From the NCBI GenBank assembly GCA_964016885.1, contig CAXHJY010001064.1, forward strand, positions 10,789 to 74,788: a stretch of DNA of 64,000 bases, given 5' to 3'. This document shows, piece by piece, positions 18,498 through 63,370 of the stretch. Origin of the DNA: Eledone cirrhosa. Taxonomy: Eukaryota. Under the pieces are notes generated by a model, which saw only the letters and a program-made list of their open reading frames with translations, made no database searches and was not told the DNA's origin. Both the position numbers and the translations under genes were made by a program. Each line of letters opens with the position of its first letter. Within the stretch, counting starts at the first letter, position 1.

Positions 18498-20878
18498 ATC
18501 ATCATCATCATCGTTTAACGTCCATTTTCCACGCTAGTATGGGTTAGCATGGGTTGTCCCACTTGAGGCAAGGTTGGTCGGGTGACCGTGTCTCGCTCAT
18601 ATAGGACTATCTGGCAGGTTTTCTACGGCTGGATGCCCTTCCTAACACCAACCACATTTACAGTGTGGAACTGGGAACTTTTTACCATGGTACCTACACG
18701 GCCACATTACAGCGTGGACTGTGTGTGTTTTTTTCTCGTGACACCTACACGATCTCGATCTCATTATCTCGTGCTGTTGGCGGGAGTGGGAGGATAGGGT
18801 AGGGGTAGTGGGATTGGGGTGTATATTTGGTTAGGAGGTGCCTACTGACTGTAGGTTTCGCTTTGTACATAGGCAAGGAGAGTCTTCTGTATTACTGTGT
18901 AGCGCCAAAGATCTCGGTCCAGTGACATTGTCTTAGAGAGGTGCAAGTGTGTAAGGTCAGAATTTATCAAATTGTCCCAGGTTTTTCTGGGTCTACCTAC
19001 TCCGTAACTACCATCAATTTTGATCACCCTGCACTTTTTTATACAGCTGTCATCTTTCATGCGCATCACGTGGCCATACCAACGTAGTCTTCTCTCGAGT
19101 AAACAGCATCTGATCCCTCTTATTCCTAATTTCTCACTTAGTTCATTTATGCTTTGCCGTTCACATATATTACTATTACACATCCAACGGAGCATGCATG
19201 CTTCGTTCCTTTCCAGTCTACGCAGGTCCTCTGCACGCAATGCCCAAGTCTCACTGCAATGTAGCATTGCTGTTCGTATACAAGCATCATGCAATCTGCC
19301 TTTCATTTTTATGGAGGCACATGGCTTAGTGGTTAGAGCATTGGCCTTGCAATCGACCTTGCATCAGACCGGGTGATGTGTTGTTTCCTTGAGCAAATAT
19401 TTTATTTCACATTGCTCCAGTTTACTCAGCTGTAGAAATGAGATGATAGGGACTGGGGTCCATATCATTCCACTGCAAAGTGGTCATGGAGGTGCCACGT
19501 CAAAAAAGCACCCAGCATTCACTGTAAATGAGGTTGGTGTTAGGAAGGGCATCCAGCTGTAGAAATCAAGCCAGAATCAGTTCCTGTCCCACCCTTGCAA
19601 GCAGGGAAAAGCGGACGTGAAAATGATGATGAAAATGATAATGAAACCTTTTGTGGCCAACAGCGGTATAAGCTCTCTGAACTTTTTCCATCCCGTTCTG
19701 ACTCTGGCTACTGTACTTTCAGAACACCCTCCACTACTGCTGATTTCGTCACCCAGGTAACGGAAAGTGCCTACTATTTCTATAGAGCCATCTGGGCAAT
19801 AGAAGGGGCTAGTATCCTGTGGACACTTGCTACCTATTGCACCTGAGCATCGGCCACATATAAAGTCTACGTTCTTAGATAGTTTACTTGTGATCCCACT
19901 ACATCTTTTATGTACCCATACTTTGCATTTGGGACATAAAATTGAATTTCTGCCTACTCCTTTCCTACACACTGAGCAAGGCCATTTCCCTGAGGGTACC
20001 TGTGCCTTGTTTTCCTTTCTACAAACTAGGACTTTAGTCTTAGACAAGTTAACTTTAAGGCCTTTTGATTCTAGGCCATGCTTCCATGTTTGGAATTTCT
20101 TTTCTAGTTCAGCCATTGATTCAGCTATGAGCGTTAGATCATCTGCGTATAGGAGTTCCCATGGGCAGCCGGTCTTGAACTCCTCTGTTATAGCCTGAAG
20201 GGCAATAATAAATAGGAAGGGGCTAAGGACAGAGCCTTGGTGAACACCAACTTTTACACTAAATTCTTCACAATATTCATTGTTAATTCTAACCTTGCTG
20301 ACTGTTTCTTTATACATGGCTTGTATAGCTCTCACAAGCCATTCATCAACACCTAGGTTTCTAAGAGCCCACCAGATAATGGAGCGGGGGACTCTGTCAA
20401 AGGCTTTTTCCAGGTCTACAAAAGCTAAGTAGAGGGGTTTACTTTTAGCTAGGTACTTCTCTTGTAGTTGTCGTACAAGGAAAAGCGCGTCTGTGGTACT
20501 TTTACCTGACACAAACCCAAACTGCATTTCATTTAGATCAATTTGCTCTCTGATTAGTTGCGCTATAACTCTTTCTGTGACCTTCATGACCTGGTCAACT
20601 AACTTAATGCCTCTATAGTTTCCTCTATCTAGAGCATCTCCTTTACCCTTGTAGCAGTTAATGATGATGCTGCTACGCCAGTCTTTTGGTATGACCCCAT
20701 TCTGTATTACTTGGTTAACTATACAGGTGACCATAGTATGTCCCACCATTCCAGATGCCTTCAACATCTCAGCAACTATCTCCGAAGCTCCAGCTGCCTT
20801 GCCTGTCTTCATATCTTTGACTGCCTTACTTATTATACTACCTTTAACTTGCACCGCTGATCCTTCTATTGGATCGAC
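18498..20878 (-). mobile_element. 5'-truncated RTE LINE family A (RT + PHD finger + thumb), split by a SINE
   Basis: ORFs 19577-20854 (NYRGIKL, FVDLEKAFDRV, GVHQGSVLSP, YADD) and 18842-19306, then 3' UTR and (cat)n tail at ~18498. Confidence 0.92.
19310..19643 (+). mobile_element. SINE with tRNA-like head and RTE-derived 3' end
   Basis: Head ggaggcacatggcttagtggttagagc. The 3' part (aaaagcacccagc...taggaagggcatccagctgtagaaa...ggacgtgaaaatgatgatg) matches the RTE-A 3' UTR and tail. Confidence 0.8.
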
Positions 20879-21172
20879 ATATATATATATTAGATTTGGT
20901 GCTCTGAAATAGCGATGTTACATAAATGTATGCATAGTATATTTGCCAATATACCGTATGTGTAATTAAAAACATTTTGAAGACTTTACGCTATCATTTT
21001 TAAATGTCACTTACTTCTTTTTGGCGAAAATATACACACATATATATATATATGCACATATATATATACACACACAAAAATATATATATATATATATTTT
21101 AACATTTCAGACAAAGCCTTATATAAAACATAGAATTATGAATGACATTCAGCCTGCTAAATACTACAGCTA

Positions 21173-37540: not shown

Positions 37541-39640
37541 GCTACTAAATGAGGAGAATAAATGGGAGAAAGACAGTCTCCCCCATATCGACCCAATAGA
37601 GGGACCAGCAGTGTTAGTCGAGGGGAGTATAATAAGTAAGGCAATCAAGGATATGAAGACAGGTAAGGCGGCTGGGCCTTCGGAAATAGTTGCTGAGATG
37701 CTGAAGGCATCTGGCACGGTGGGACACACCATGGTCACTCGCATAGTTAACCATGTCGTACAGAATGGGGTTGTTCCGAAGGAATGGCATAGCAGCATCA
37801 TCGTTAACTGTTATAAGGGTAAAGGAGACGCCCTAGATAGGAGTAACTATAGAGGCATTAAATTAATCGACCAGGTCATGAAGGTCACGGAAAAAGTAAT
37901 AGCGCAACTAATCAGAGAGAGAATTGACCTAGATGAAATGCAGTTCGGGTTTGTGTCAGGCAAAAGTACCACAGACGCTCTTTTCATAGTACGACAACTA
38001 CAGGAGAAGTTCCTAGCTAAAGGTAAACCCCTCTACTTAGCTTTTGTCGACTTGGAGAAAGCCTTCGACAGAGTCCCCCGCTCCATTATCTGGTGGGCTC
38101 TTAGAAAACTAGGCGTTGACGAATGGCTTGTGAAGGCTATACAAGCCATGTATAAAGAAACAGTCAGCAAGGTTAGAATTAACAACGAATATAGTGAAGA
38201 GTTTAGCGTAAAAGTTGGCGTCCATCAGGGCTCTGTTCTCAGCCCCCTACTATTTATTATTGCCCTTCAGGCTATAACAGAGGAGTTCAAGACAGGCTGC
38301 CCATGGGAACTCCTATACGCAGACGACCTGACACTCATAGCGGAATCAATGGCCGAGCTAGAGAAGAAATTCCAAACATGGAAGCACGGCCTAGAGTCAA
38401 AAGGACTTAAAATTAACCTGGCTAAGACCAAAGTTCTAGTTTGTAGGAAAGAAAACAAGGCGGCGGTCCCTTCTGGGAAATGGTCGTGCTCGGTGTGTAG
38501 GAAAGGCGTAGGTAGAAACTCCATTTTATGTCCTAAATGCAAAGTATGGGTGCATAAAAGATGTAGTGGGATCACAGGTAAGCTAACTAAGAACATAGAT
38601 TTTACATGTGGCCGGTGTTCTGGTGCAATAAGTAGCAGCAAGTGCCCACAAAATACTAGCTCTTTCAATTGCGCAGAGGGTTCTATAGAAATAGTGGACA
38701 GCTTCCGTTACCTGGGCGATAAAATCAGCAGTGGGGGAGGGTGCTCTGAAAGTACTGTAGCTAGAGTCAGAACTGGTTGGAAAAAGTTCAGAGAGCTTAT
38801 ACCACTATTAGCTGCTAAAGGGTTCTCCCTAAAAATGAAAGGCAGGTTGTACGATGCCTGCATACGAACAGCAATGTTGCATGGCAGTGAGACCTGGGCA
38901 TTGTGTGCAGAGGATATACGCAGACTAGAGAGGAACGAAGCTTGCATGCTCCGCTGGATGTGTAACAGTAATATACGTGAACGGCAAAGCATAAACGAAC
39001 TAAGGAAAAAATTAGAGATAAGAGGGATCAGATGTTGTTTACTCGAGAGAAGGCTACGTTGGTATGGACACGTGATGCGCATGAAAGTCGATAGCTGTAT
39101 AACAAAGTGCAGGGCAATAAAGATAGACGGTAGCCACGGAATAGGCAGACCTAGAAAAACCTGGGACGAGCTGATAAACTCCGACCTCACACACTTACAC
39201 CTCTCCAAGACAATGTCACTGGACCGAGACCTTTGGCGGTACTCAGTAACAGAGAAGACCCGCCTTGCCAGTAGGCATCTCTAACAAAATACACCCCGTC
39301 CCGCCACCACCCCCACCCCATCCACACCACCCCGTTCTATGTAAAGTTATGTTGGTGCCGCGCCATCCAGGCCGAAACAAATGAGATCGTGTAGGTGTCA
39401 CGACAAAAAAACACACAGTCCACGCTGTAATGTGGCCGTGTAGGCAACACGGTAAAAACCTCCCAGACCCACACTGTAAATGTGGTTGGTGTTAGGAAGG
39501 GCATCCAACTGTAGAAAACCTGCCAGACAGTCCTATGCGAGCAAGACAATCACTCTTGCCTCAAGTGGGACTACCCCCGTCCAAACCCATGCAAGCGTGG
39601 AACACGGACGTTAAACGTTGATGATGATGATGATGATGAT
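37541..39640 (+). mobile_element. RTE LINE family A, 5'-truncated copy (RT-PHD-thumb, 3' UTR, (GAT)n tail)
   Basis: ORF to 39284 with RT motifs. The N-terminal IYIY part of the listed ORF is microsatellite read-through. Confidence 0.95.
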
Positions 39641-39894: not shown

Positions 39895-42800
39895 TGGGGT
39901 GGGTCTGCTAGATTCATTGAGGGTAAAAAACGATGTTATAAGCTTTTCTGGGTGGGAAACGACGATGGGCTGGGTGGAGTAGGAATCATGGTAGCAGAAA
40001 AGTGGGCAGATAAGATAATAGACGTAAATAGAGTGAATGACAGAATAATTAAAATACGACTTGTCCTCAATAGAACTACGGTGACAGTAATATCTGCGTA
40101 CGCACCCCAATCCGGACTGCCCGGCACTATAAAAGACAGATTCTATGAGACACTGATGCTAACTACCTCCCAAATATCCGACAGTGACTATATAATTATT
40201 GCAGGCGACCTAAATGGTCACGTTGGACAACATTGTGACGGCTACGTACGACGAAATCCATGGAGGCTATGGGTTTGGTACTAGAAATGAGGAAGGCTCC
40301 AGAATCCTGGAATTCTGTGATGCAAATAACCTAACTATCTGTAACACTAACTTCAAAAAACGTGACAATCACCTGATCACCTATAGATCCGGGAAACACA
40401 CAAGCCAGGTAGATTATATCCTTACCAGAAGACGTGACAGAGTGTCTGTTGTAAACACTAAATCCCTCCCCCATGAAGAATGCACCTCGCAACATAGACT
40501 GATAATTAGCGACCTCATAGTCAGGACAAGACGTACTCGACAGCAGAAGAGGACTATCCTCAGGAGAAAAATATGAAAGCTAAAGGACCCCACAGCCAGG
40601 AATAAATTTCAAAGCATATTACTTGATGCTTTCGACAGTAAGGAAGAACATTTAGAGTCGGACAATATAGAGGGAGAGTGGGAATTTCTGAAAGCAAACC
40701 TGCTGTTGGCGACAGACGAAGTCTGTGGCTGGAGCAGGCCTGTAGGCAGGAGGAGAGTAACATGGTGGTGGAACAGTAAGGTGGAGGGGTCAATTAAGGC
40801 CAAAAAGCAAGCTTGGAAAGTATGGCGGGATGGGGGAAGTAGAGAAGACTATCAAGTGGCCAGGAGGGAAGCTAGGAGACAAGTGTACTTAGCAAGAAGG
40901 GAAGCTGAGGAAAGAAAGTTCAAGCATGTTCTACAACGCGATGACCAAAAACGTGAGGTGTTCAGGATTGCTAGGCAATGCGTCAAGGAAAACCGTGATA
41001 TTGTCGGGGAGAAGTGTGTACTTAACGATGATGGCATACTTGCCATCACCGACGCTGATAAGAAGGTAGCTTGGAAGTGTCACTATGAAAGGCTACTAAA
41101 TGAGGAGAATAAATGGGAGAAAGACAGTCTCCCCCATATCGACCCAATAGAGGGACCAGCAGTGTTAGTCGAGGGGAGTATAATAAGTAAGGCAATCAAG
41201 GATATGAAGACAGGTAAGGCGGCTGGGCCTTCGGAAATAGTTGCTGAGATGCTGAAGGCATCTGGCACGGTGGGACACACCATGGTCACTCGCATAGTTA
41301 ACCATGTCGTACAGAATGGGGTTGTTCCGAAGGAATGGCATAGCAGCATCATCGTTAACTGTTATAAGGGTAAAGGAGACGCCCTAGATAGGAGTAACTA
41401 TAGAGGCATTAAATTAATCGACCAGGTCATGAAGGTCACGGAAAAAGTAATAGCGCAACTAATCAGAGAGAGAATTGACCTAGATGAAATGCAGTTCGGG
41501 TTTGTGTCAGGCAAAAGTACCACAGACGCTCTTTTCATAGTACGACAACTACAGGAGAAGTTCCTAGCTAAAGGTAAACCCCTCTACTTAGCTTTTGTCG
41601 ACTTGGAGAAAGCCTTCGACAGAGTCCCCCGCTCCATTATCTGGTGGGCTCTTAGAAAACTAGGCGTTGACGAATGGCTTGTGAGGGCTATACAAGCCAT
41701 GTATAAAGAAACAGTCAGCAAGGTTAGAATTAACAACGAATATAGTGAAGAGTTTAGCGTAAAAGTTGGCGTCCATCAGGGCTCTGTTCTCAGCCCCCTA
41801 CTATTTATTATTGCCCTTCAGGCTATAACAGAGGAGTTCAAGACATGCTGCCCATGGGAACTCCTATACGCAGACGACCTGACACTCATAGCGGAATCAA
41901 TGGCCGAGCTAGAGAAGAAATTCCAAACATGGAAGCACGGCCTAGAGTCAAAAGGACTTAAAATTAACCTGGCTAAGACCAAAGTTCTAGTTTGTAGGAA
42001 AGAAAACAAGGCGGCGGTCACTTCTGGGAAATGGTCGTGCTCGGTGTGTAGGAAAGGCGTAGGTAGAAACTCCATTTTATGTCCTAAATGCAAAGTATGG
42101 GTGCATAAAAGATGTAGTGGGATCACAGGTAAGCTAACTAAGAACATAGATTTTACATGTGGCCGGTGTTCTGGTGCAATAAGTAGCAGCAAGTGCCCAC
42201 AAAATACTAGCTCTTTCAATTGCGCAGAGGGTTCTATAGAAATAGTGGACAGCTTCCGTTACCTGGGCGATAAAATCAGCAGTGGGGGAGGGTGCTCTGA
42301 AAGTACTGTAGCTAGAGTCAGAACTGGTTGGAAAAAGTTCAGAGAGCTTATACCACTATTAGCTGCTAAAGGGTTCTCCCTAAAAATGAAAGGCAGGTTG
42401 TACGATGCCTGCATACGAACAGCAATGTTGCATGGCAGTGAGACCTGGGCATTGTGTGCAGAGGATATACGCAGACTAGAGAGGAACGAAGCTTGCATGC
42501 TCCGCTGGATGTGTAACAGTAATATACGTGAACGGCAAAGCATAAACGAACTAAGGAAAAAATTAGAGATAAGAGGGATCAGATGTTGTTTACTCGAGAG
42601 AAGGCTACGTTGGTATGGACACGTGATGCGCATGAAAGTCGATAGCTGTATAACAAAGTGCAGGGCAATAAAGATAGACGGTAGCCACGGAATAGGCAGA
42701 CCTAGAAAAACCTGGGACGAGCTGATAAACTCCGACCTCACACACTTACACCTCTCCAAGACAATGTCACTGGACCGAGACCTTTGGCGGTACTCAGTAA

Positions 42801-43445: not shown

Positions 43446-44126
43446 TGGGGTGGGTCTGCTAGATTCATTGAGGGTAAAAAACGATGTTATAAGCTTTTCT
43501 GGGTGGGAAACGACGATGGGCTGGGTGGAGTAGGAATCATGGTAGCAGAAAAGTGGGCAGATAAGATAATAGACGTAAATAGAGTGAATGACAGAATAAT
43601 TAAAATACGACTTGTCCTCAATAGAACTACGGTGACAGTAATATCTGCGTACGCACCCCAATCCGGACTGCCCGGCACTATAAAAGACAGATTCTATGAG
43701 ACACTGATGCTAACTACCTCCCAAATATCCGACAGTGACTATATAATTATTGCAGGCGACCTAAATGGTCACGTTGGACAACATTGTGACGGCTACGTAC
43801 GACGAAATCCATGGAGGCTATGGGTTTGGTACTAGAAATGAGGAAGGCTCCAGAATCCTGGAATTCTGTGATGCAAATAACCTAACTATCTGTAACACTA
43901 ACTTCAAAAAACGTGACAATCACCTGATCACCTATAGATCCGGGAAACACACAAGCCAGGTAGATTATATCCTTACCAGAAGACGTGACAGAGTGTCTGT
44001 TGTAAACACTAAATCCCTCCCCCATGAAGAATGCACCTCGCAACATAGACTGATAATTAGCGACCTCATAGTCAGGACAAGACGTACTCGACAGCAGAAG
44101 AGGACTATCCTCAGGAGAAAAATATG
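43443..44126 (+). mobile_element. Duplicated RTE-A endonuclease segment (truncated)
   Basis: Matches 39892-40575 at +3551 offset, including the frameshift. Confidence 0.95.
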
Positions 44127-46167
44127 AGCTTCTTCTCCATCTCAGGCTGGATCCTGTTAAGAATCATCCTGTTGAGGGTCTTTGCCACAAGTGACGTCAG
44201 TGAGATCCCCGGTAGTTGTTGGTGTTAGAGAGATCTCCCTTCTTTGACACTGGGACGATGTTACTGATCCTCCACTGATTCGGGGCAACTCCTTTCTCCA
44301 GTGCCCCGTTACAGAACCCCAGGATGATATCATCAAAATCACACCTCTTCATCACCTCTGATGCCACTCCATCTTCTCCATGAGCCTTGCCCTCCTTGAT
44401 CCTCTTCTTGGCTCTCTGAAGCTCCTCTCTGGTGAAGGACTCTGTCTCAACATCCAGTTCCTCAAACAGCTGCCTGATCTCCCCAGTGCTCTGGGCTGTG
44501 GAGGGTGGCTCTCCTAGTAGGGTCCTAAAATGGTCTAGCCATTTCCTCTTCCTATCCTCGGGCCCTGTTCCCTGGATCTGACTCGACACCTTCTCTTCCT
44601 CCCTGTGATCTCGTTGATGATCATCCAGCTCTCCTTACATCCAGATCTGTCAACCGCTCTCTCCACACTTCTGATCTTCTCTATCAGTGCCTCCTCTCTG
44701 ACCTCAGTGTAAGCGGTACAGAGCTCTTCCCTCATCACCTCCACAGTCTCCATCCTCTCCTCTGTAGGATCAGCATAGAATTGATCCCTGGCAGCTTTCA
44801 GGTGTTCTCTGGCTGCACACACTTTTGGGTTTGCAGAGCTGACGTGCTTCCCTTTGTTCTTTTTCCTCGGCACCAGGGTTTCACTTGCTTCCGCCACTGC
44901 ATTGGTGAAGTGCCCGTACCTCCTCGTCACACTCTCCTTGGTCCATCCAATCTCTCTCTCCTCTGACTCTCCACACAGAGCACTAAACCTGTTTCTCACT
45001 TCCACTGTGAACCTCTCCTGTAGCCTATCATCTTCCTTGAAAGCTCCCCAGTCATAGATTGTTCTCCGGGGCTGAGCCTTGCTCTTTCTTAAGCTCACGC
45101 GGACCTCACTCATAACAAGCCGGTGGTCACTACCCAGTGTACTGAAATAGCAGTATGGTTCCGTGTTCAGAACACTATTCCGCCACTTTTTCCTCACCAG
45201 AATGAAATCAATCTGGGACTTGGACAGGTGCATATCTGAGATGTAGGTCCACATCTTCCCCAGATTCTTCCTAAACCCTAGGTTGGTCGCCATCAAGTTC
45301 GCCTCCAGCAGGGTGTCTCTCAGTAGTCTTCCATTTCGGTTGGTGTTGTTATGGAAGTACCAGCAAGGATCTTCACTGCCCTCCTTACTCAGATGTTCAT
45401 TGAAGTCCCCCAAAACAAGCAGGATATTGTGTGCCTGAGTAGTGTTGACAGCTCTACACACCTCCTCATGGAACTCTTCTGCACTCACATCACTGTCCCC
45501 CTCGGTTGGACTATAGGCTGAGATGACTGTCAGTCTTGGGTTTCCATTGAAGGTCACCCTCAACACTCGCGGGGAGATAGGCATTATTTCCCTCACCAAC
45601 AGATTGGTTTTTGTACTGAACACAAACCCACTCCTCCTACTGCAGCATTTGTTGTGTTCTTCACTGCCGATGTAGTGATGAGCTGGCTCTTCCTCCCGAT
45701 CATCACACTCCTCACGGGCTCATCGTGTAGAATCCTGTGTTCTTGGATCGCAAGTATCTGTATACCACTCTCCTCGAACAGATGTCCCAAATCCTCTCTC
45801 TTCTCCAGCGTCCGAATAGTCCTCACATTCAAAGTGCCCATTTTGATGGTTCTTCTGCAGGACAAAACTGCATTCTTTATATTTGTCTCAGAGACAGCTG
45901 ATCCATCATCCACTGGCCCTCTCTGTGGCTCTAAGCCAGCAGAGTCATAACGACCAGGCTGCTCCTTGACAGTGTAATTAGGCGCTCTAACCCTAGTGCT
46001 GTTAGATCGACTCTCCATATTTCTTTTCAATGGCTGACAATACCTTACCGGCGCCACTCGAATAAGGTAGTTATGACAACTAAGGGGTAACTCCACATTC
46101 CCCACATCTCCTGAACTCCCGAACTGGAGCCTTGCCACTGGATGTAGTTTAATGTCATACCCAGGAC

Positions 46168-46355: not shown

Positions 46356-46438
46356 TATATATATTTATATATATATATATATATATAAATTAATAAAATA
46401 ATGGATAAACAAAGAAACAGTTCCTTATATTAAAAAAT

Positions 46439-46576
46439 TCATCATTTTACGATCGTTTCTAGGATATATATGTTTGTGTTGGTATGCATATCCTATAGAT
46501 CTATGTAAAATTTTTACAAACTATCAGAGGGAATATACATACCTACACATATATATGCTGTCTTCAGAAATAATGA
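46439..46576 (-). ncRNA. Type I hammerhead ribozyme (long stem II)
   Basis: tcattattt-CTGAAGA-[~100 nt stem II]-GAAAC-gatc-GTA-aaatgatga. Stem I is 9 bp with one G.U. Confidence 0.8.
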
Positions 46577-47583
46577 TATTTGTCTGTTTGGGAACAGGTT
46601 TTGAATTGACCAATAGAAAGATAGTGAAGGTCAAGATAGTAATATAGTAGTAAAAGAACCTTAATTTATGGGTAGAGGAAGGTAGATTTTAGTTTTGGAT
46701 GGAAAGAATATTATGAATGAAAGATTATTTTCGGGATGAGAATAGGTCATATGCTGACCTCAGAAATAATTATATTTGTTCATTGAATAAAACCAACAAA
46801 GATTTAGTATAGTAGGTTTGTTTGGGAACAGGTTTTGAATTAACCAATAGAAAGGTAATAATTGGCCAAATGGTAAAATAGTAGTAATTGAAATTTATTT
46901 TGGGGTAGAAGAAGGCAGATTTCAGTTTTGAATGGAAGGAGTATGAAGAATGAAAAGTTTATTTTAGGGTGAAAATAGGTCAGGTCAGTAAAACGTAACA
47001 CTAAAAGTTGCTGTTATAAAAGAATAATGCCAATGTAAATATCTAAGGAGACTAAAATTTTACGATAAAAGTGTTAGTGAAAAAAATATATATGGAATTT
47101 ACATCTATGAAAAGAATATAAATTAATTTAATTGATGGGTATATTTATATTGATAAAATTATATTAATGCATATAGATATGATAAATAAGAGTTAGATGT
47201 AATTGAAGAGTGCTGTTAAAGACGAGGGGAAATTAAATAAATATAAAAAGAATATATATATATATATATATAATTATTGTGGAGGGGGGGGTGTTAAATT
47301 TATTAGTGAGAAATAATAAATATATAGAGATTTCAAGGAACATAGAATCATAACCCGAAATTAAAATATTATATATATTTACTTAATGGTATCAATTTTA
47401 GGAAAAGATAGTTGTAAGAAGGAAAGTAAAATTATGTAGTTCATCAGTAGTAGAATATTAATTATAGGTTAAGTAAATTAAAAATAGTTTTTATATTAAT
47501 TTCTAAAATGTATATTAATTACGTTTATAATATTTAAAGGTTTTTATCAGTTTATGATTACACGATATTATTAATTCCTGTCG

Positions 47584-47765
47584 TGGTGGATTGGCAGTAT
47601 CGGTAGAGGGTTTGACGCCATGCTTTCCAGCATAGTTACGTCCCTTTATGATCTGAGTTCAAATCCCGCCGAGGTTGACTTTGCCTTTCATCCTTACGGG
47701 GTCGATAAAATAAAGTACCAGTAATGCACTGAGTAATTGCTGGCCTTGTGCCTAAAGTAGAAACA
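47584..47765 (+). mobile_element. SINE inserted in the Penelope GIY-YIG end
   Basis: 17-bp TSD attattaattcctgtcg at 47567-83 and 47766-82. Confidence 0.9.
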
Positions 47766-49206
47766 ATTATTAATTCCTGTCGCTTATTTAATAGGATATC
47801 CTTAGATTTCATTATTTCAAAAAGTTCTTGGGAACATAATCTACATTCATATCTATTATTTTGATAAGGGGTGGCCCTTTTGAGCACACTCCAGGTCAGG
47901 TCATAATCTATATTCCTCTTTCTATAATTATTAATTATTTCAGCTAGAGATGTTGTATTAGCTAATGCGGCATTTTTAAAACTATGTTTGTGGGTATAAA
48001 ATCTTACCTTAAATTGGTTAGAGGTAGCTCCTATATATGAATAAATTGAGTCCTTAGTGTTAACTTTACATTTATATACTATGTTATTAACAAGGCAATT
48101 TCCTTTTAATGGGCAGTTTGCTTTGTTTCTACAGTTACAACTTTTCGTGAATCCTGTATCAGAGGAGATATTATGGTTAGTTTGATGTACTGGTGGTATA
48201 CTCATGTTTTTTTACATTTATATGCATTGTAGGCACTTATATTTTGTTTTATGTTTTTGGTTGTTGAGTAGGAGAATTTAACCGTTGATCTATTTAAAAT
48301 TTGATGGTATTTGTTGTTTGGCGGGAAGTTCTTCTCTAGGATATTAAACATTTTTTTAGGTATATTATCCTTAATTTGTAAATTAAATGGAGCATTATAC
48401 CAAGTAACTCGTCTATTACGGTTTCGATGTTGTTTATTATTTTTATAGGATGTATCCTGATGTTTATTAAGAGAATTATTGTTAATGACTTCACCACACA
48501 CATTTTTAGTTAGATTTATTGATTTAGGTGTTTTAGCTTGTTTATTAGGAGTTTTATTATTAACATTTATTAGAGTAGTAGGATGAGTAGTTTTTTGAGA
48601 GTTACTATATTGTATATTAGAAGAGTTAGAGAAATTTGGTTTTATGTTGGTATTTTGGGGTATAGTGTGAGTGGCATTTAGGTGTGTATGTTTCATTTGG
48701 TGTTTGTTGGTAATATTAGGTTGTATGTTTGTAGTGTTATTGGTACAAGGTATATATACTAATTTATTTTTGTGGCCACTTCTAGCTAAAGCTTCGTTAT
48801 AGAAGGTCGCATTTTTATCAAATATATCCTGGTTAGACGAAAGGTTAGAAATTCTAAGTGAGATATTATATGCAAGGTTTTTAAGGATAGATTTAGGGTG
48901 ATTAGATTGTGAGTGTATGTAATGTAAATTTTGGTTAGGTTTATGGTAAGGTTGGTCGTAGATAAGTCTAATGTTATATCAAGGAAATTAACTACTTTAG
49001 TTGTGTTTTCAAATGTAATATCTAGACTATAATAGTCTTTGAGGAAAGTTCTAATAAGCTTTTTATTTTTTTCTATCTCTGAAAGGCTAAGGTTATTGGA
49101 AAGAAGAAGACAGTCGTCACTATATAAACCACCTTTAAGGTGGGCAAAGGAAGCATTTATGTTAAAAAGAAGAAAGAGGCCTATTGGTTTTTTCAATAAA
49201 CAAATA

Positions 49207-49344
49207 TCATTATTTCTGAAGACAGCATATATATGTGTAGGTATGTATATTCCCTCTGATAGTTTGTAAAAAATTTACATAGATCTATAGGATATGCATA
49301 CCAACACTAACATATATATCCTAGAGACGATCGTAAAATGATGA
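49207..49344 (+). ncRNA. Hammerhead ribozyme copy with core mutation (GAAA to GAGA)
   Basis: CTGAAGA at 49216-22, GAGAC-gatc-GTA at 49324-35, stem I tcattattt/aaatgatga. Confidence 0.7.
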
Positions 49345-49545
49345 ATTTTTTAATATAAGGAACTGTTTCTTTGTTTATTCATTATTTTATTAATTTATCT
49401 TGACTCTGTTTTCCGTTAATTTTCACCTAAAAATTTTTTTGAATACATCTTCTCTTTTCATGATATTCGGATTACATTGAGTTCTTCATACGGATTGGAC
49501 ACTACCGTACATTTTGGTAGATTTATCTACATATATATATATATG

Positions 49546-49676
<131 letters not shown>

Positions 49677-49683
49677 ATAATAT

Positions 49684-49817
<134 letters not shown>

Positions 49818-49869
49818 AATTAATAAAGTAATGAATAAACAAAGAAACAGTTCCTTATATTAAAAAAAT

Positions 49870-50009
49870 TCATCATTTTACGATCATTTCTAGGATATAT
49901 ATGTGTTAGTGTTGGTATGCATATTCTATAGATCTATGTAAAATATTTATACAAACTATCAGAGGGAATATACATACCTACACATATATATGCTGTCTTC
50001 AGAAATAAT
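49870..50009 (-). ncRNA. Hammerhead ribozyme in the 3' pLTR, abutting a SINE
   Basis: attattt-CTGAAGA...GAAAT-gatc-GTA-aaatgat. Confidence 0.7.
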
Positions 50010-50176
50010 TGTTTCTACTTTAGGCACAAGGCCAGCTATTACCCAGTGCATTACTGGTACTTTATTTTATCGACCCCGTAAGGATGAAAGGCAAAGTCAA
50101 CCTCGGCGGGATTTGAACTCAGATCGTAAAGGGACGTAACTATGTTGGAAAGCATGGCGTCCGACCCTCTACCGAT
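50010..50176 (-). mobile_element. SINE in the Penelope 3' pLTR
   Basis: gaaataat duplicated at 50002-09 and 50177-84. Same site as 54182-54353. Confidence 0.9.
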
Positions 50177-50879
50177 GAAATAATGATATTTGTTTATTGA
50201 AAAAAACAAAGATTTAATACAATAGGACTGTTTGGGAACAGGTTTTGAATTGACCAATAGAAAGATAGTGAAGGTCAAGATAGTAATCTAGTAGTAAAAG
50301 AACCTTAATTTATGGGTAGAGGAAGGTAGATTTCAGTTTTGGATGGAAAAGAATATTATGAATGAAAGATTATTTTAGGGATGAAAATAGGTTGTATGCT
50401 GACCTCAGAAATAATTATATTTGTTCATTGAATAAAACCAACAAAGATTTGATATAGTCTGTCTGTTTGGTAACAGGTTTAGAATTAACCAATAGAAAGT
50501 TAATAATTGGCCAAATGGTAAAATAGTAGTAATTGAAGTTTATTTTAGGGGTAGATGAAGGTAGATTTCAGTTTTGAATGGAGTGTGAAGAATGAGAAGG
50601 TTATTTTAGGGGTTAAAATAGGTCAGGTCAGTAAAAGGTATATGAGCAGTTGCTGTTATAAACCAGTAATGCCAATGCAAATATCTAAGGAGACTAAAAT
50701 TTTACGATAAGAGTGTTAGTGAAAAAATACATCCATGAAAAGAATATAAATTAATTTAATTGCTGGGTATATTTATATTGATAAAATTATACTAATGCAT
50801 ATAGATATGATAAATAAGAGTTAGATGTAGTTGAAGAGTGCTGTTAAAGATGAGGGGAAATTAAGAGAATATAAAAATA

Positions 50880-50910
<31 letters not shown>

Positions 50911-51232
50911 TATACATACACATACACACACGCATATATATATATATATACACACACATACATACATATATATATACACATATACATACATACACATACA
51001 TATAATTATTGAAGGGGGGGGGAGTTAAATTTATAATAAATATATAGAGATTTCAAGGAACATAGAATCATAACCTGAAATTAAAGGATTATATATGTTT
51101 ACTTAATGGTATCAGTTTTAGGAAATGATAGTTGTAAGAAGGAAAGTAAAATTATGTAGTTCACATAGTAGAATATTAATTATAGGTTAACTAAATTAAA
51201 AACAGTTTATATATTAATCTCTAAGATGTATA

Positions 51233-53678
51233 TTAATTAGGTTTATAATATTTAAAGGTTTTTCTCAGTTTGTGATTACACGCTATTATTAATTCCTGTC
51301 GCTTATTTAATAGGATATCCTTAGATTTCATTATTTCAAAAAGTTCTTGGGAACATAATCTACATTCATATCTATTATTTTGATAAGGGGTGGCCCTTTT
51401 GAGCACACTCCAGGTCAGGTCATAATCTATATTCCTCTATCTATAATTATTAATTATTTCAGCTAGAGATGTTGTATTAGCTAGTGCGGCATTTTTAAAA
51501 CTATGTTTGTGGGTATTAAAGTTTACCTTAAATTTGTTAGAGGTAGCTCCTATATATGAATAAATTGAGTCTTTAGTGTTAACTTTACATTTATATACTA
51601 TGTTATTAACAAGGCAATTACCTTTTAATGGGCAGTTTGACTTGTTTCTACAGTTACAACTTTTCGTGAATCCTGTATCAGAGGAGATATTATGGTTAGT
51701 TTGATGTACTGGTGGTATACTCATGGTTTTTTTACATTTATATGCATTGTAGGCACTTATATTTTGTTTTATGTTTTTGGTTGTTGAGTAGGAGAATTTA
51801 ACCGTTGATCTATTTAAAATGTGATGGTATTTGTGGTTTGGCGGGAAGTTCTTCTCTAGGATATTAAATAATTTTTTAGGTATATTATCCTTAATTTGTA
51901 AATTAAATGGAGCATTATACCAAGTAACTCGTCTATTACGGTTTCGATGTTGTTTATTGTTTTTATAGGATGTATCCTGATGTTTATTAAGAGAATTATT
52001 GTTAATGACTTCACCACACACATTTTTAGTTAGATTTATTGATTTATGTGTTTTAGCTTGTTTATTAGGAGTTTTATTATTACCATTTATTAGAGTTGTA
52101 GGATGAGTGGTTTTTTGAGAGTTACTATATTGTATATTAGAAGAGTTAGAGAAATTTGGTTTTATGTTGGTATTTTGGGGTATAGTGTGAGTGGCATTTA
52201 GGTGTGTATGTTTCATTTGGTGTTTGTTGGTAATATTAGGTTGTGTTTGTAGTGTTATTGGTACAAGGTATATATACTAATTTATTTTTGTGGCCACTTC
52301 TAGCTAGAGCTTCGTTATAAAAGGTCGCATTTTTATCAAATACGTTAGACGAAAGGTTAGAAATTCTAAGTGATATATTATATGCAAGGTTTTTAAGGAT
52401 AGATTTAGGGTGATTAGATTGTGAGTGTATGTAGTGTAAATTTTGGTTAGGTTTATGGTAAGGTTGGTAGATACCCGTAGATAAGTCTAATGTTATATCA
52501 AGGAAATTAACTACTTTACTTGTGTTTTCAAATGTAATATCTAGACTATAATAGTCTTTAAGGAAAGTTCTAATAAGCTTTTTATTTTTTTCTATCTCTG
52601 AAAGGCTAAGGTTATTGGAAAGAAGAAGACAGTCGTCACGATATAAACCACCTTTAAGGTGGGGAAAGGAAGCATTTATGTTGAAAAGAAGAAAGAGGCC
52701 CACAAGATCAGTAATTTGGGCAGAATCACTTGAGCCCATAGTAATATCGAATAGATTACTATATGTGTTTCTGGTCCAGTATTCATTTTGAAATTCCAAT
52801 AGTATTAGTCTGGCATGTGTAATAATATTAATGTCATCCAAAGTTAAGTTAGATCTATTTTTAGCAAATATCAAGGCTTTGTTCAGGAGTATAGGTGATA
52901 TAGAAGAATAATAATTATCTATATCAAATTGTAGAAATGAAGCAGAGGATCTATTTCTAATATTATTAAACCAGTTAATTACCTGGGATGTGTTTTCCCA
53001 GAGTGGTAAATTAACATGTTTTCTTAGTTGTGGGATGACTCTATCTAAATTTTTTTTACTAATGATTCCAATATCAGATTTGGAAGGGCATATAAGCCTT
53101 ATAGAAGGATTAGAGTTAAAGTTAGATTTATGATCTTTCAGGTTGAAATGTGGTCTTTTCAGTGCCAAAGGTTCAGTTCTATCTTCAATATTAAGTCTAT
53201 TCACTATGTTGTGTGTTTTGTTGTTGATGTTGGTAAGTGACGCATTGTTTGTTTTTCTATAATTCTTCCTGAGTTCTTTATATATGAACTCATTGTAATT
53301 TTCAATATCCATGTGATACAGATTTCCAGTTTTGTCCGAGTGGACATGGATTTTTTTAGATTTTTTTAGATCCAATAGGGTAGAATCAAGATCCTTTTGA
53401 AAATTAGATTTATACCTCTTAAATTTGAGGTGTTTGATTAAATTAAAAAGGTCTTTCTCAAAGTTTTCAAGTAAGGAGTTGTGTGGTGGATTTTTATATG
53501 TAGTGAAATCATATAAATACTTCTTATCAGTACATTTTGTTTTTTTATCGAAGTGGTAGGCCCTCCATCTGACCCTTCTGATAAATTGGTTGTTTTTTTG
53601 TATCATAAGAAGTAAGAAATCATCCTTAGAAGGTAATGGTATATTCTTTAAAGAGGTTCCCAAGTATTGTTTTTCCAT
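51233..53678 (-). pseudogene. Penelope RT + GIY-YIG ORF (~815 codons once repaired), one frameshift and one nonsense mutation
   Basis: ATG at 53678 (MEKQYLGTSLKNIP), SDKTGN, FDIDNYYSSI, TMGS, LYRDD, NFLDI, SNHP, then GIY-YIG. 2-bp deletion near 52245 and TAG at 51437-39 relative to copy B. Confidence 0.9.
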
Positions 53679-54041
53679 TGTGATATGGATAATGGACAAG
53701 AAAAAGAGCTCAACTATGAAGTTATACACATATATATATAGCTCAACTATAAAGTTATACACATATATATATATATATAAATATATATACACATACACAT
53801 ATATATACATTCACAAAAATAAGAATATTCCCATAAAAATAGGAGCAAAGTATGTAGATAAATCTACCAAAAATTTACGGTAGCGTCCAATCCGTATGAA
53901 GAACTCAATGTAATCCGGATATCATGAAAAGAGAAGATGCATTCAAAAACTATTTTCGGTGAAAATTAACGGAAAACAGAGTCAAGATAAATTAATAAAG
54001 TAATGAATAAACAAAGAAACAGTTCCTTATATTAAAAAAAT

Positions 54042-54181
54042 TCATCATTTTACGATCGTTTCTAGGATATATATGTGTTAGTGTTGGTATGCATATTCTA
54101 TAGATCTATGTAAAATATTTATACAAACTATCAGAGGGAATATACATACCTACACATATATATGCTGTCTTCAGAAATAAT
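54042..54181 (-). ncRNA. Hammerhead ribozyme in the 5' pLTR, abutting a SINE
   Basis: attattt-CTGAAGA (54174-54168)...GAAAC-gatc-GTA-aaatgat. Confidence 0.78.
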
Positions 54182-54353
54182 TGTTTCTACTTTAGGCACA
54201 AGGCCTACAATTACCCAGTGCATTACTGGTACTTTATTTTATCGACCCCGTAAGGATGAAAGGCAAAGTCAACCTCGGCGGGATTTGAACTCAGATCGTA
54301 AAGGGATGTAACTATGCTGGAAAGCATGGCGTCCGACCCTCTACCGATACTGC
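54182..54353 (-). mobile_element. SINE in the Penelope 5' pLTR
   Basis: 13-bp TSD cttcagaaataat at 54169-81 and 54354-66. Confidence 0.9.
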
Positions 54354-54920
54354 CTTCAGAAATAATGATATTTGTTTATTGAAAAAAACAAAGATTTAAT
54401 ACAATAGGTCTGTTTGGGAACAGGTTTTGAATTGACCAATAGAAAGATAGTGAAGGTCAAGATAGTAATCTAGTAGTAAAGGAACCTTAATTTATGGGTA
54501 GGGGAAAGTAGATTTCAGTTTTGGATGGAAAAGAATATTATGAATGAAAGATTATTTTAGGGATGAAAATGGGTCGTATGCTGACCTCAGAAATAATTAT
54601 ATTTGTTCATTGAATAAAACCAACAAAGAGTTGATATAGTCTGTCTGTTTGGTAACAGGTTTAGAATTAACCAATAGAAAGTTAATAATTGGCCAAATGG
54701 TAAAATAGTAGTAATTGAAGTTTATTTTAGGGGTAGATGAAGGTAGATTTCAGTTTTGAATGGAGTGTGAAGAATGAGAAGGTTATTTTAGGGGTTAAAA
54801 TAGGTCAGGTCAGTAAAAGGTATACGAACAGTTGCTGTTATAAAATAGTAATGCCAATGCAAATATCTAAGGAGACTAAAATTTTACGATAAGAGGGTTA
54901 GTGATATATAATATATATAT

Positions 54921-58904: not shown

Positions 58905-59059
58905 TTCATTATTTCTGAAGACGGCATATATATGTGTTTGGTATGTATATTTAATTTTGATAGTTTGTATAATTTTGTATAATTTTGTACATAGATCTGT
59001 TGAATATGCATGCCAATTCTAACACATATATATCCTAGAAACGATCGTTAAATAATGAA
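58905..59059 (+). ncRNA. Type I hammerhead ribozyme (long stem II, subfamily 2)
   Basis: ttcattattt-CTGAAGA-[116 nt]-GAAAC-gatc-GTT-aaataatgaa, with a perfect 10-bp stem I. Confidence 0.82.
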
Positions 59060-59544: not shown

Positions 59545-60190
59545 GAGAATATTGAGAAGCCAGAGGGGATCACTAATGTAGGCGGGAAGCCGCTGGAATT
59601 GGTTGAGGACTTCCTGTATTTGGGAGCAAAGATTGGGAATACGGAAGATGATGTGGTTGAGAGGAAGAGCAAGGCCTGAGCGGCGTGTCACAGCTTGAGA
59701 TCGGTGTGGAAGTCGGACCTTCGTAGAGACCTGAAAATCCGCCTTTTCATTGCTGTAGTGGAGTCTGTGCTGCTGTATGGGTCTGAGACTTGGACACTAA
59801 CCAAGAGACTCACTCAGATGGTGGATGGGTGCTACACGAGAATGCTGAGGATGGCTCTGAACATTAATCAGTATACACTGAGGATGAAAAACTCAGAGCT
59901 GTATGGGAGCATCCCAAAAGTCAGCTCAAAAGTGACACAGAGGAGACTGAGGTTGGCTGGACATGCTCACCGACATCCAGAGTTGACATTGCACTCAGTG
60001 CTCCTTTGGGAGCCCCTACATGGACACACTAGAAGAGGAAGACCAAGGTTAACATATGTTGATGCCCTAAGGACAGACACTGGTCTGTTGGAGATGCAGG
60101 ATATGGCAGCGATAATGAGGGACAGAGACCGCTGGAGAGAACTCGTCCATGGATCTCGAGAATTTTACCCGCCTTAGATAGATAGATATA
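59545..60190 (+). mobile_element. RTE family B 3' end with (TAGA)n tail
   Basis: LELVEDFLYLG and ORF 59695-60177 (ESVLLYGSETWTL, RRLRLAGH, GRPRLTY), then tagatagatagata. Confidence 0.9.
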
Positions 60191-60758: not shown

Positions 60759-63370
60759 TAAACAAATAATGAACAAACAATTCCTTATATTAAACAAAAA
60801 AAGTTCACTATTTAACGATCGTTTCTAGGGTATATATGTGTTATAATTGGTATACATATTTAACAGATCTATGTACAAAATTATACAAAATTATACAAAT
60901 TATCAAGATTAAATATACATACCTAACTCATATATACGCCGTCTTCAGAAATAATGAAGTATATTTATTGATAATAACAACAATTCAAAATATCAGTTCA
61001 AAATTGACCAATGAAAACACAAAGGGTTAAAAGCAGTTTGGTGTGTGTATATACATGTAAAAACCTTACACATATTTTACAATAATGTGTGTATAATTTG
61101 TATGTGCATACTAAAAAGATGGATGCAAACACAAAATTTCAAGGTTAATATCTCTGTAAGCTTAATGCGCTGATAAGATACGCAATGATACTTATGGAGT
61201 CAAGCATATAAAAATGTTTTTTTCACACATATCAGTATAATCACACATACATGTGCGTATATGCATAAATATACACATAACCACGAACATACAAACACAC
61301 ACACATATATAGGAGCTACCTCTAACAATTTTAAGACAAGGTATAATACCCACAAACATAGCTTTAAAAATGCCGCACTGGCTAATACAACATCTCTAGC
61401 AGAAAAAATCAATAGGTATAAAAATAAAAATATAAAATATGATTTGACCTGGAGTGTGCTCAAAAGAGCCACCCCTTATCAAAATAATAGAAAGGAATGT
61501 AGATTATGTTCCCAAGAACTATTTGAAATAATGAAGTCTAGGGATATCTTATTAAATAAAAGACAGGAATTAATTATATCGTGTAATCATAAACTAAAAA
61601 AAACATTTAAATATTATAAACCTAATTAATAACATTATTCTAGAATTTAATTTAATTTAAATGTTAGTTAACCTATAAATTTAATTTAATTAATATTTTA
61701 TTACAGATGAGAAAATATTATGTAATCATAAATTTTGAAAAACCTTTAAATATTACTAATATATACTCAGTAATTTAATTTATAGATTAATTTTAATTTA
61801 TTTTAACCTTTTATTATAATTTTTTTTTTTTATTATAATTCTTTTACAGATAAAATATAACAAAATAATATCATGTATCCTATGACGGAGAAAGAATTTT
61901 TTAGTATTATAGACCTAATTAATATACATTTTGGAAATATATTTATTATTTGGTTTTAGTTTTAATCAACCTAAAACTTTAATTTTAATTTGCTTAAAAT
62001 TAGTATCCTTGTACAGACGAATTGCAGAATGTCATGTAATCATAGAATGGGATGTGTTTTGGATATATACCTAGTTAATATATTCTGTGCAATTTTTTGA
62101 AAAAGATATGTATATCTATATGTATATGTATATGTGTGTGTTGTATGTGTATCTGTATGTATATTTATGTGACTATATATGTATATATGTGTATATATAT
62201 GTATATATATATATATATGTGTGTATATGTATATATATGTGTATGTGTATGTATATGTATATGTATGCGTATTAATTTTGATTTTTATTTGCATATAATT
62301 ATATTATGCTATTGATGAAATACAATATCTGCTTTATGTATTGTATACCTAATTAACATATACTAATTAACGTATACTATTGAAATAAATATATAATTTT
62401 TAATTTAGTTAACATATAATTTATATGCTACTACCGATGTAATACTTTATTTTATTTTTATTTGGGTTTCTTTTCCCTATTACTAAGTTCATCTCCTAAT
62501 ATTGATACCATAACGTTATTAACTTTAATTTAGTTATAATGTAATTAATAATCTACTACTGTTTGACTTCATAATTCTGCTTCAAATATTATAAACCTAA
62601 CTAATTTACACCTTGGAAATTAATATGTTGACTATCTTTGGTTTAGTTAACATATGATTAATGGTATACTTTTTTATTTTGAGATGCATAGATTTCGTAT
62701 TTCCTAGCACTGAAAATATGTAAGAACATACATTGAATTAAGATACGGAAAATATTATATGTTTCTTGAAACATATATTTACTTTGATCCCCTTCTCCAA
62801 ACCCCCCCTTTCCCCCATACTATTATCATCTGTTTTTGTAAGCGTATATGTATGAATATATGTGTAGGTGGGTGTCTATATAGGTTTTGGTATTTATTTC
62901 TAAATATAAAAATACATATATGAGCATGTAAATATGAATGTAAGATTGAGTGTGTATATATGATTGTACATACATATGTGTGTATATATATGTATATATA
63001 TGTATTATATATGTATGTGTATGTGAATGTGTGGTATGTATATGTGTATGTATATGTATATATGTGTATGTATGTGTATGCTTGTATATAGGAATATATA
63101 TGTATGTGTATATATGTATGTATATGTATATGCGTGTTTGTATGTATGTGTATATGGGTTCTGTATATATTTGTATGTCTCTCTATTTATATGTTTATCT
63201 TCGTATCTATGTGATATATGTGTGTGTGTGTGCACGTATGCATATGTATGTGTTTGTGTGTGTTTGTATGTGTGTGTGTATATATATGTGTATTTGCGCA
63301 CACTCACATACACATATATATATATATATATGTGAGTGTGTATGTGTGTCTGTGTGTGTGTGTGTCTGTG

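Follow-up and report, generated by a model that had tools for sequence, protein, structure and literature searches.

A SINE in the predicted hammerhead arm of both terminal repeats of a Penelope-like element: most likely carried there by a single integration

The locus analysed here raises the question of how a SINE came to lie in the same arm of a predicted hammerhead ribozyme in both terminal repeats (pLTRs) of one Penelope-like element (PLE), and of whether the ribozyme could survive it. The window, that is the whole stretch of 64,000 nucleotides from Eledone cirrhosa that was analysed, consists of AT-rich animal DNA in which long (TA)n tracts occur. An initial annotation of it had proposed that the SINE entered a Penelope master copy and spread from there, tolerated by virtue of a TSD that rebuilt the ribozyme. 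The explanation that we favour, and hold to be just on the probable side, is narrower: the SINE was a one-off passenger, copied into both pLTRs of a single copy, where it is predicted to jam the ribozyme.

Two Penelope-like copies, A and B, lie on the minus strand at 46385-54895. Copy A is ordered 5' pLTR (54895-53870), ORF (53675-51280) and 3' pLTR (50713-49815). The first of these (53870..54895, minus strand) includes its run-on towards the ORF and joins a (TA)n tract at its 5'-truncated end, and the last (49815..50713, minus strand, the part shared with the 5' pLTR) ends in (TA)n 61 nt past the predicted cut. Copy B is 5'-truncated and has an inverted pLTR at 49184-49515; (TA)n adjoins the ends of other copies as well as both ends of copy A. 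The ORFs of the two copies differ at 29 of 1389 sites (2.1%; 47785-49181 versus 51302-52700) and their pLTRs by 5-8%. The single, short ORF of copy A (51280..53675, minus strand, <3 kb) is disrupted twice, near 52245 by a frameshift and at 51439 by a stop, and encodes an RT followed by a C-terminal GIY-YIG-type EN (YRDD, then YIG), with RWR at residue 36, DKT in place of DKG at residue 114, and the cysteine motifs CNCRNKSNC (51658, CxCx5C), CRLC (51364, CxxC) and CNH (51280, CxH). Pfam returned no family for the three PLE pieces; 57 homologues were found, mostly unnamed.

The definition of the Hydra clade includes an RWK-type motif and DKT (PMC8557442, section 11), and on its motifs the element appears to be a Hydra-clade PLE. 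As described in PMC8557442, members of this clade, including Hydra-1_Obim of Octopus bimaculoides, share with it a single short ORF with RW[R/K], DKT, YRDD, CxCx5C, CxxC and CxH, insertion into (TA)n with partial tandem and inverted pLTRs, and a hammerhead near the 3' end whose core is CUGAAGA and whose cut site has A or U. The hammerhead sequence here differs from that of Hydra-1_Obim and therefore represents another family, and the SINE in both pLTRs of copy A sets it apart from the clade as described there. Elsewhere in the window, a decayed PLE EN end (61304-62670) is followed by several partial repeats of the segment comprising the ORF end and 3' UTR.

The insertion in the 5' pLTR of copy A is a tRNA-type SINE of 172 bp (54182..54353, minus strand) that lacks about 10 bp at its 5' end, with an intact B box GTTCAAATCC and an A-box-like motif whose first base is replaced. 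The boxes were labelled from what we take to be their consensus; the A and B box-like motifs were picked by eye, and ARAGORN found no tRNA gene in the window. The element has the features of a SINE in being short, dispersed, of high copy number and flanked by a TSD, with variable 5' truncation and a fixed 3' end. About 10 copies are present in the window, and its depth is one to three orders above that of the flanks in all four sequencing runs compared. We presume a likeness to MetaSINE or to the octopus OK/OR1/OR2 families. Its motif had no match in one supplement file of PMC4824008. As the initial annotation had stated, the SINE is co-oriented with the ribozyme, both being on the minus strand, and is flanked by a 13-bp TSD, identical in both copies, that duplicates stem I plus CUGAAG. 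The downstream copy (54169..54181, minus strand) consists of the 5' arm of stem I, with seven pairs possible, followed by CUGAAG. The upstream copy (54354..54366, minus strand), taken with the preceding bases, keeps the original 9-bp arm and is a predicted decoy for the 3' arm. The empty site was confirmed by raw reads of run X14, 131 of which, from 21 start places, skip from 54168 to 54354, with 13 ambiguous letters that fit either side. An independent SINE of the same subfamily, used as a control, lies in the ORF end of copy B (47584..47765, plus strand) with a 17-bp TSD that starts with ATTATT; this subfamily is young, and the control SINE is on the strand opposite to copy B.

The site of insertion itself is unexceptional. 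Nine other SINE 3' ends in AAACA are followed by ATTATT in six cases, ATTGTT in two and ATTATA in one, and because ATTATT is the usual sequence after SINE 3' ends, the stem I arm is an ordinary SINE target. ATTATT occurs 136 times in the 60,212 unmasked bases of the window, and about six of the some 130 other sites carry a SINE end. We accordingly rejected the notion of a special event in which the TSD rebuilt the ribozyme, since any TSD restores the letters downstream of it and ATTATT is the usual target. The first bases of the SINE, GCAGTAT, resemble the continuation of the target, ACAGCAT, and this likeness may have guided the 5' join. In a survey that measured five TSDs (no TSD was obtained at two ends, and cases in a TA tract or a palindrome were left out), the clean TSDs of four independent SINEs were 12, 16, 17 and 19 bp long, compared with 13 bp in the 5' pLTR. 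At 510-732 of the window, two SINE 3' halves lie tail to tail around a palindrome (648-657); another SINE end is found at 892.

The motif into which the SINE was inserted is a predicted type I hammerhead (54042..54181, minus strand). Its parts are the core CUGAAGA (54174-54168), a stem II region of 104 nt, GAAA (54062-54059), the palindrome ACGAUCGU (54059-54052), H17=A (54051) and the stem I 3' arm from 54050. The counterpart in the 3' pLTR of copy A (49870..50009, minus strand) has C15.2 changed to U at 49886, which is 54058 in the coordinates of the 5' pLTR. Four empty motifs served as controls: those of the 3' pLTR of copy B (46439..46576, minus strand) and of its inverted pLTR (49207..49344, plus strand, GAAA reading GAGA), and two from a more distant subfamily (58905..59059, plus strand, and 60804..60958, minus strand). 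Their stem I sites (46562-46574, 49209, 58908 and 60943) are all SINE-free, the first of them bearing out the earlier claim that copy B lacks the insertion. Rfam gave no match in the window at its gathering score; the hammerhead was identified from its anatomy and its likeness to PLE motifs in the literature. The core CUGANGA...GAAA...NUH lies between three helices, with GAAA in five of six aligned copies. The helix III palindrome occurs at six places and is broken in the 3' pLTR of copy A. In the drawn structure of the six full copies, 99.5% of cells are paired and two pairs have two-sided change. However, 29 of 500 shuffles score as high, so that covariation lends the structure modest support; the drawing itself was based on these very sequences.

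With PLE dimer hammerheads (Cervera and De la Pena 2014, PMC4209133), the predicted motif shares its type I form, an extra base after A9, a short palindromic helix III and its location in the pLTR. It is unlike them in having no G10.1-C11.1 pair: in each of the six copies, the base of stem II has a C opposite an A. The same C-facing-A layout is found in PLE-X1_cBra, and many Hydra motifs have an unpaired base on each side at the G10.1-C11.1 position (PMC8557442, File S2). The stem II region is far longer than in the Hydra rows of File S2, where the stem II loops have 3-10 nt, and a hammerhead with so long a stem II is a variant of interest by itself. The region (54063-54166) and its five sister copies keep two stacked helices across subfamilies that are about 80-85% alike. 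The long stem II region is possibly a protein-binding or RT-start element. An alternative hammerhead on the upstream arm was rejected, as it reads CUGAAGG (A9 lost) and has the SINE inside its core. The pLTRs also have a degenerate internal tandem duplication of ~230 bp (~77%; 54580-54600, 50398-50418 and 46753-46773), empty copy B included, which repeats the stem I arm and then CUGAGGU, lacks the ribozyme 3' half, and is a potential decoy arm.

The initial annotation had described an intact ribozyme with a 7-bp stem I downstream of the SINE. As far as the letters go this holds, since CUGAAGA...GAAA...GUA is present there and seven stem I pairs are possible, versus 9-10 in the empty copies. 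The predicted fold is another matter. In nearest-neighbour predictions, which take no account of tertiary contacts or protein, stem I had a probability of 0.70-0.95 in all four empty copies and of <=0.001 in all four SINE constructs (15, 20 and 37 C). In the short SINE constructs the left-over upstream 9-bp arm pairs with the 3' arm (P 0.86-0.98), in the long construct neither arm does so, and the SINE tail is predicted to fold back onto the new stem I arm as a hairpin. The cost of a forced hammerhead at 37 C was 2.8 kcal/mol for the empty form, 4.9 for the 7-bp stem by itself, 6.9 when the SINE was present, 9.5 in the presence of the orphan arm and 11.7 for the 3' copy; in longer contexts it was 6.8 kcal/mol with the SINE versus 3.3 empty. 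Double hammerheads behaved in the same direction, with empty/empty pairs at -11.4 and -12.4 kcal/mol and SINE/SINE pairs at +5.0 and +5.8. Of the mixed forms, the full dimer reached -4.7 kcal/mol and an empty enzyme on a SINE-bearing substrate -12.5, which predicts that SINE-bearing sites are cleaved in trans by an empty ribozyme. The SINE is therefore predicted to jam the ribozyme fold instead of preserving it, and the proposal that it was tolerated because self-cleavage was preserved finds no backing, both because folding predicts the opposite and because ribozyme mutants of an anole PLE had no effect on insertion in vitro (PMC11167929). The anole PLE ribozyme cleaves only with its protein (PMC11167929), which means that a protein could potentially refold the SINE form.

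The 3' pLTR of copy A has a SINE of 167 bp (50010..50176, minus strand) at the same 3' junction, with an 8-bp remnant of the upstream TSD beside it (50177-50184, minus strand). Its 5' junction lacks 10 bp, five of TSD and five of SINE, and most of the A box is gone. The earlier claim that both pLTRs carry the same insertion is consequently upheld at the 3' junction and qualified at the 5' junction, which is 10 bp shorter. The two SINEs differ at five sites and have no private derived base in common. In pairwise comparison they differ at 3 of 109 positions, and each differs from the unrelated SINE at 47584 by 2-3 of 109. Their common origin rests on position, not on sequence: besides sharing the 3' junction, their 5' ends are within five bases of each other, whereas other inserts are 52, 104, ~120, 182 and 183 bp long. 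Because measured TSDs are 12-19 bp, the 8-bp remnant would fit a later deletion better than an original TSD length; between copies A and B, two 6-7-bp indels are found in 1389 bp.

Comparison of the pLTRs along their length bears on how both came to be filled. Those of copy A are each other's closest relatives throughout, sharing about 35 states against copy B, and their private substitutions are split 8:8 with one left unpolarised. Their differences number 1 in 192 positions on the ribozyme side, 5 in ~165 within the SINE and 11 in 533 upstream, and are evenly spread (chi2 p=0.20), and the SINE is not younger than the rest (5/~165 versus 12/725 differing, Fisher p=0.21). Both outer ends join (TA)n and each pLTR runs on into sequence absent from the other, on which ground a simple tandem DNA duplication was rejected. 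The permuted order of pLTR, ORF and pLTR is likewise one that duplicating either pLTR by itself at the DNA level could not produce. A partial tandem of one integration is a standard form in PLEs (PMC8557442, Fig. 2 legend). Copying of the SINE into both pLTRs by one Penelope integration is, from these patterns, most likely.

We envisage that a SINE inserted once, into one pLTR of a donor, and that one integration into (TA)n, by a reverse transcription exceeding unit length, then wrote the donor 3' region twice. The template may have been a circular or tandem RNA, or there may have been a template jump, possibilities that the data do not separate. On the circular RNA route for PLEs (PMC4209133), a SINE in the 3' pLTR would enter both pLTRs, and we infer that a template jump would likewise place it in both. 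Both pLTRs share a rare allele at 54000, on the downstream side of the cut site, which fits a circle or a lineage allele slightly better. A 10-bp deletion would later have occurred at the junction of the 3' copy. The doubly filled daughter would have lost cis self-cleavage and, with its broken ORF, was probably a dead end, making the SINE a passenger of one or few rounds and not the mark of an adapted subfamily.

The ends of the elements bear on whether copying depends on the cut. Four 3' ends lie 60-80 nt past the predicted cut site (46385, 49815, 56834 and 60750) and two at ~200 nt (49515 and 59236), the latter class consisting of two plus-strand copies, one of which is the inverted pLTR of copy B. 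Ends past the cut site imply templates that were uncut or re-joined there, so cleavage would be no precondition for copying, or the RNA would have been re-joined. The anole Poseidon PAc (Frangieh et al. 2024, PMC11167929) similarly has ends at fixed points past the cut site and AT-rich targets, and fixed ends are what would be expected from internal RT initiation on uncut RNA as in PAc. It belongs to a different clade, and its ribozyme overlaps the ORF start, unlike the one here, which is ~375 nt upstream of the ATG.

Among the other explanations, a local DNA event fares best, although we consider it fairly unlikely. In this scenario the SINE would have entered one pLTR after integration and then reached the other through gene conversion or unequal exchange, as could happen between pLTRs that are 4.2 kb apart and ~98% identical in a window with other local duplications. 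It would also accord with there being no second locus known and with a lineage allele at 54470 being near single-copy depth in run X1. However, the SINE is the most diverged part of the pLTRs, and the lack of a younger tract on it argues against late conversion; any conversion would have to have been early or to have spanned the whole 900 bp.

That one young SINE subfamily was inserted independently in each pLTR, at the same preferred ATTATT site, is in our estimation decidedly unlikely. The differing 5' junctions (13-bp versus 8-bp TSD), the want of a shared private base and a SINE pair whose members resemble the copy at 47584 as closely as they do each other are all compatible with separate hits, and an ATTATT occupancy of a few percent gives the same chance for a second hit. 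Against this, the second hit would have to fall on one particular site among ~136, would have left a TSD shorter than all five measured, and would have yielded a 5' end within five bases of the first when other inserts vary from 52 to 183 bp.

A wider spread of the SINE with its host was assessed in four of 16 listed public runs, compared on 53820-54900, namely X1, X4, X5 and X14, the last being RAD-seq (reduced-representation); no RNA run was among those listed, which carries no information about expression. Contigs drop rare forms, as three private alleles of the 5' copy have zero depth in X1. At 54470, among the variants listed (40 of 510), a base other than the allele shared by both pLTRs of copy A is found in 90 of 91 X14 reads, in 5305.9 of 5321.7 of the X1 depth and in the whole depth of X4 and X5. 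At 54000, again among the variants listed, the other base is found in 62 of 63 X14 reads, with an X1 remainder of 1453 of 101,526 depth, and X14 remainders, with the same scope, were 9 of 183 at 54633 and 6 of 134 at 54796. Alleles of the A lineage therefore make up 1-5% of family reads at most at four sites, and since they are so rare a large SINE-carrying subfamily is unlikely, though as a test this is weak, whereas a donor or a few siblings would fit the depth remainders. No record among those listed (24 of ~142,600 pieces and 15 of 301 joints) bridges the SINE junction; two contigs from 54350 (records 7 and 20) enter the SINE by four bases only and stop short of bridging it. The junction pattern had no match in metagenome, prokaryote-genome or viral contigs, and related loci for the RT protein were found in none of 373 candidates from metagenome contigs, but this animal is not expected in such collections and the negatives are therefore uninformative. 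In run X5 (organism B), pLTR pieces over 54350-54629 are 98-99% like those of copy A (records 20 and 22), a level of likeness indicating that the pLTR lineage is shared with a related organism.

It had also been suggested that Pol III read-through could yield a SINE-hammerhead RNA. The B box is intact, as this would require, but the A boxes are damaged or lost, a T4 run lies inside stem II (54115), and in an arm-free SINE-hammerhead chimera stem I had P=0.001. A T7 run lies just past the motif (54040). Only the 5' copy could give rise to such a chimera, for which the prediction is that no hammerhead fold would form.

These results together make the master-copy version very unlikely, in which the TSD preserved self-cleavage and a SINE-carrying Penelope subfamily spread, possibly with SINE-hammerhead RNAs. 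It can draw on the surviving core letters and seven possible stem I pairs, on a stem I of 3-7 bp in most published Hydra rows (PMC8557442, File S2), on the remainders at 54000, 54633 and 54796, which leave room for a small subfamily, and on the T7 run, which at 10 nt past the cut site could end Pol III read-through. Against it stand the stem I probabilities of <=0.001 and the unfavourable dimer, the low frequency of lineage alleles, the damaged or lost A box, the T4 run in stem II and the broken palindrome of the 3' copy. Of the passenger role claimed for the SINE, what survives is its copying into both pLTRs by one integration; a propagating subfamily is not supported, given alleles at 1-5%. 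Lastly, an assembly or consensus artefact that cross-contaminated the two pLTRs is scarcely credible, as 17 evenly split substitutions and one deletion separate them and the TSD agrees with the empty site in raw reads, even if several alleles of the locus have zero depth in the X1 contig set.

SINEs nested with a TSD inside older retroelements are a general phenomenon, and the SINE at 47584 in copy B is another example. The present case is unlike the usual ones in that the SINE lies in a ribozyme arm and in both terminal repeats. The literature covered, outside which most subscription papers fall, yielded no description of a PLE with a SINE in its ribozyme or in both of its pLTRs. Taken as one decayed locus, the finding is modest: a SINE nested in a dead copy. 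Its broader interest is that the SINE, lying in the ribozyme arm at both ends, tags the template heritably, and is thereby a natural marker for pLTR formation. Given the preference of the SINE for this arm and the abundance of both elements, many such tags are expected in the genome, and counts of singly versus doubly filled copies would test models of pLTR formation directly. Such tags bear on how PLEs form their pLTRs and on what their hammerheads do in vivo (PMC4209133, PMC8557442, PMC11167929).

A further reading, which we put forward tentatively and regard as somewhat unlikely, is that insertion into the arm acts as built-in mutagenesis. A donor with one jammed ribozyme would still retrotranspose, either through cutting by the intact partner of the dimer or with no cut being necessary; the doubly filled daughter, having lost both cis ribozymes, would stop. 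If this is true, copies that are doubly filled and non-amplified, in excess across the genome, would show both that the two pLTRs derive from one template and that the next generation requires the hammerhead in vivo.

Other repeats were observed in the window. LINE-like fragments are present at 43765-45719, with an AP endonuclease match (PF14529) at 44538-45716, and at 59545-60180, and the LINE-like 3' piece has a sub-threshold match to DUF6451. These fragments are presumably RTE-like, and are a candidate partner of the SINE. The segments 37585-38637 and 41136-42188 form a tandem duplication spaced 3551 bp, with an inverted relative at 19828-20880 (88%).
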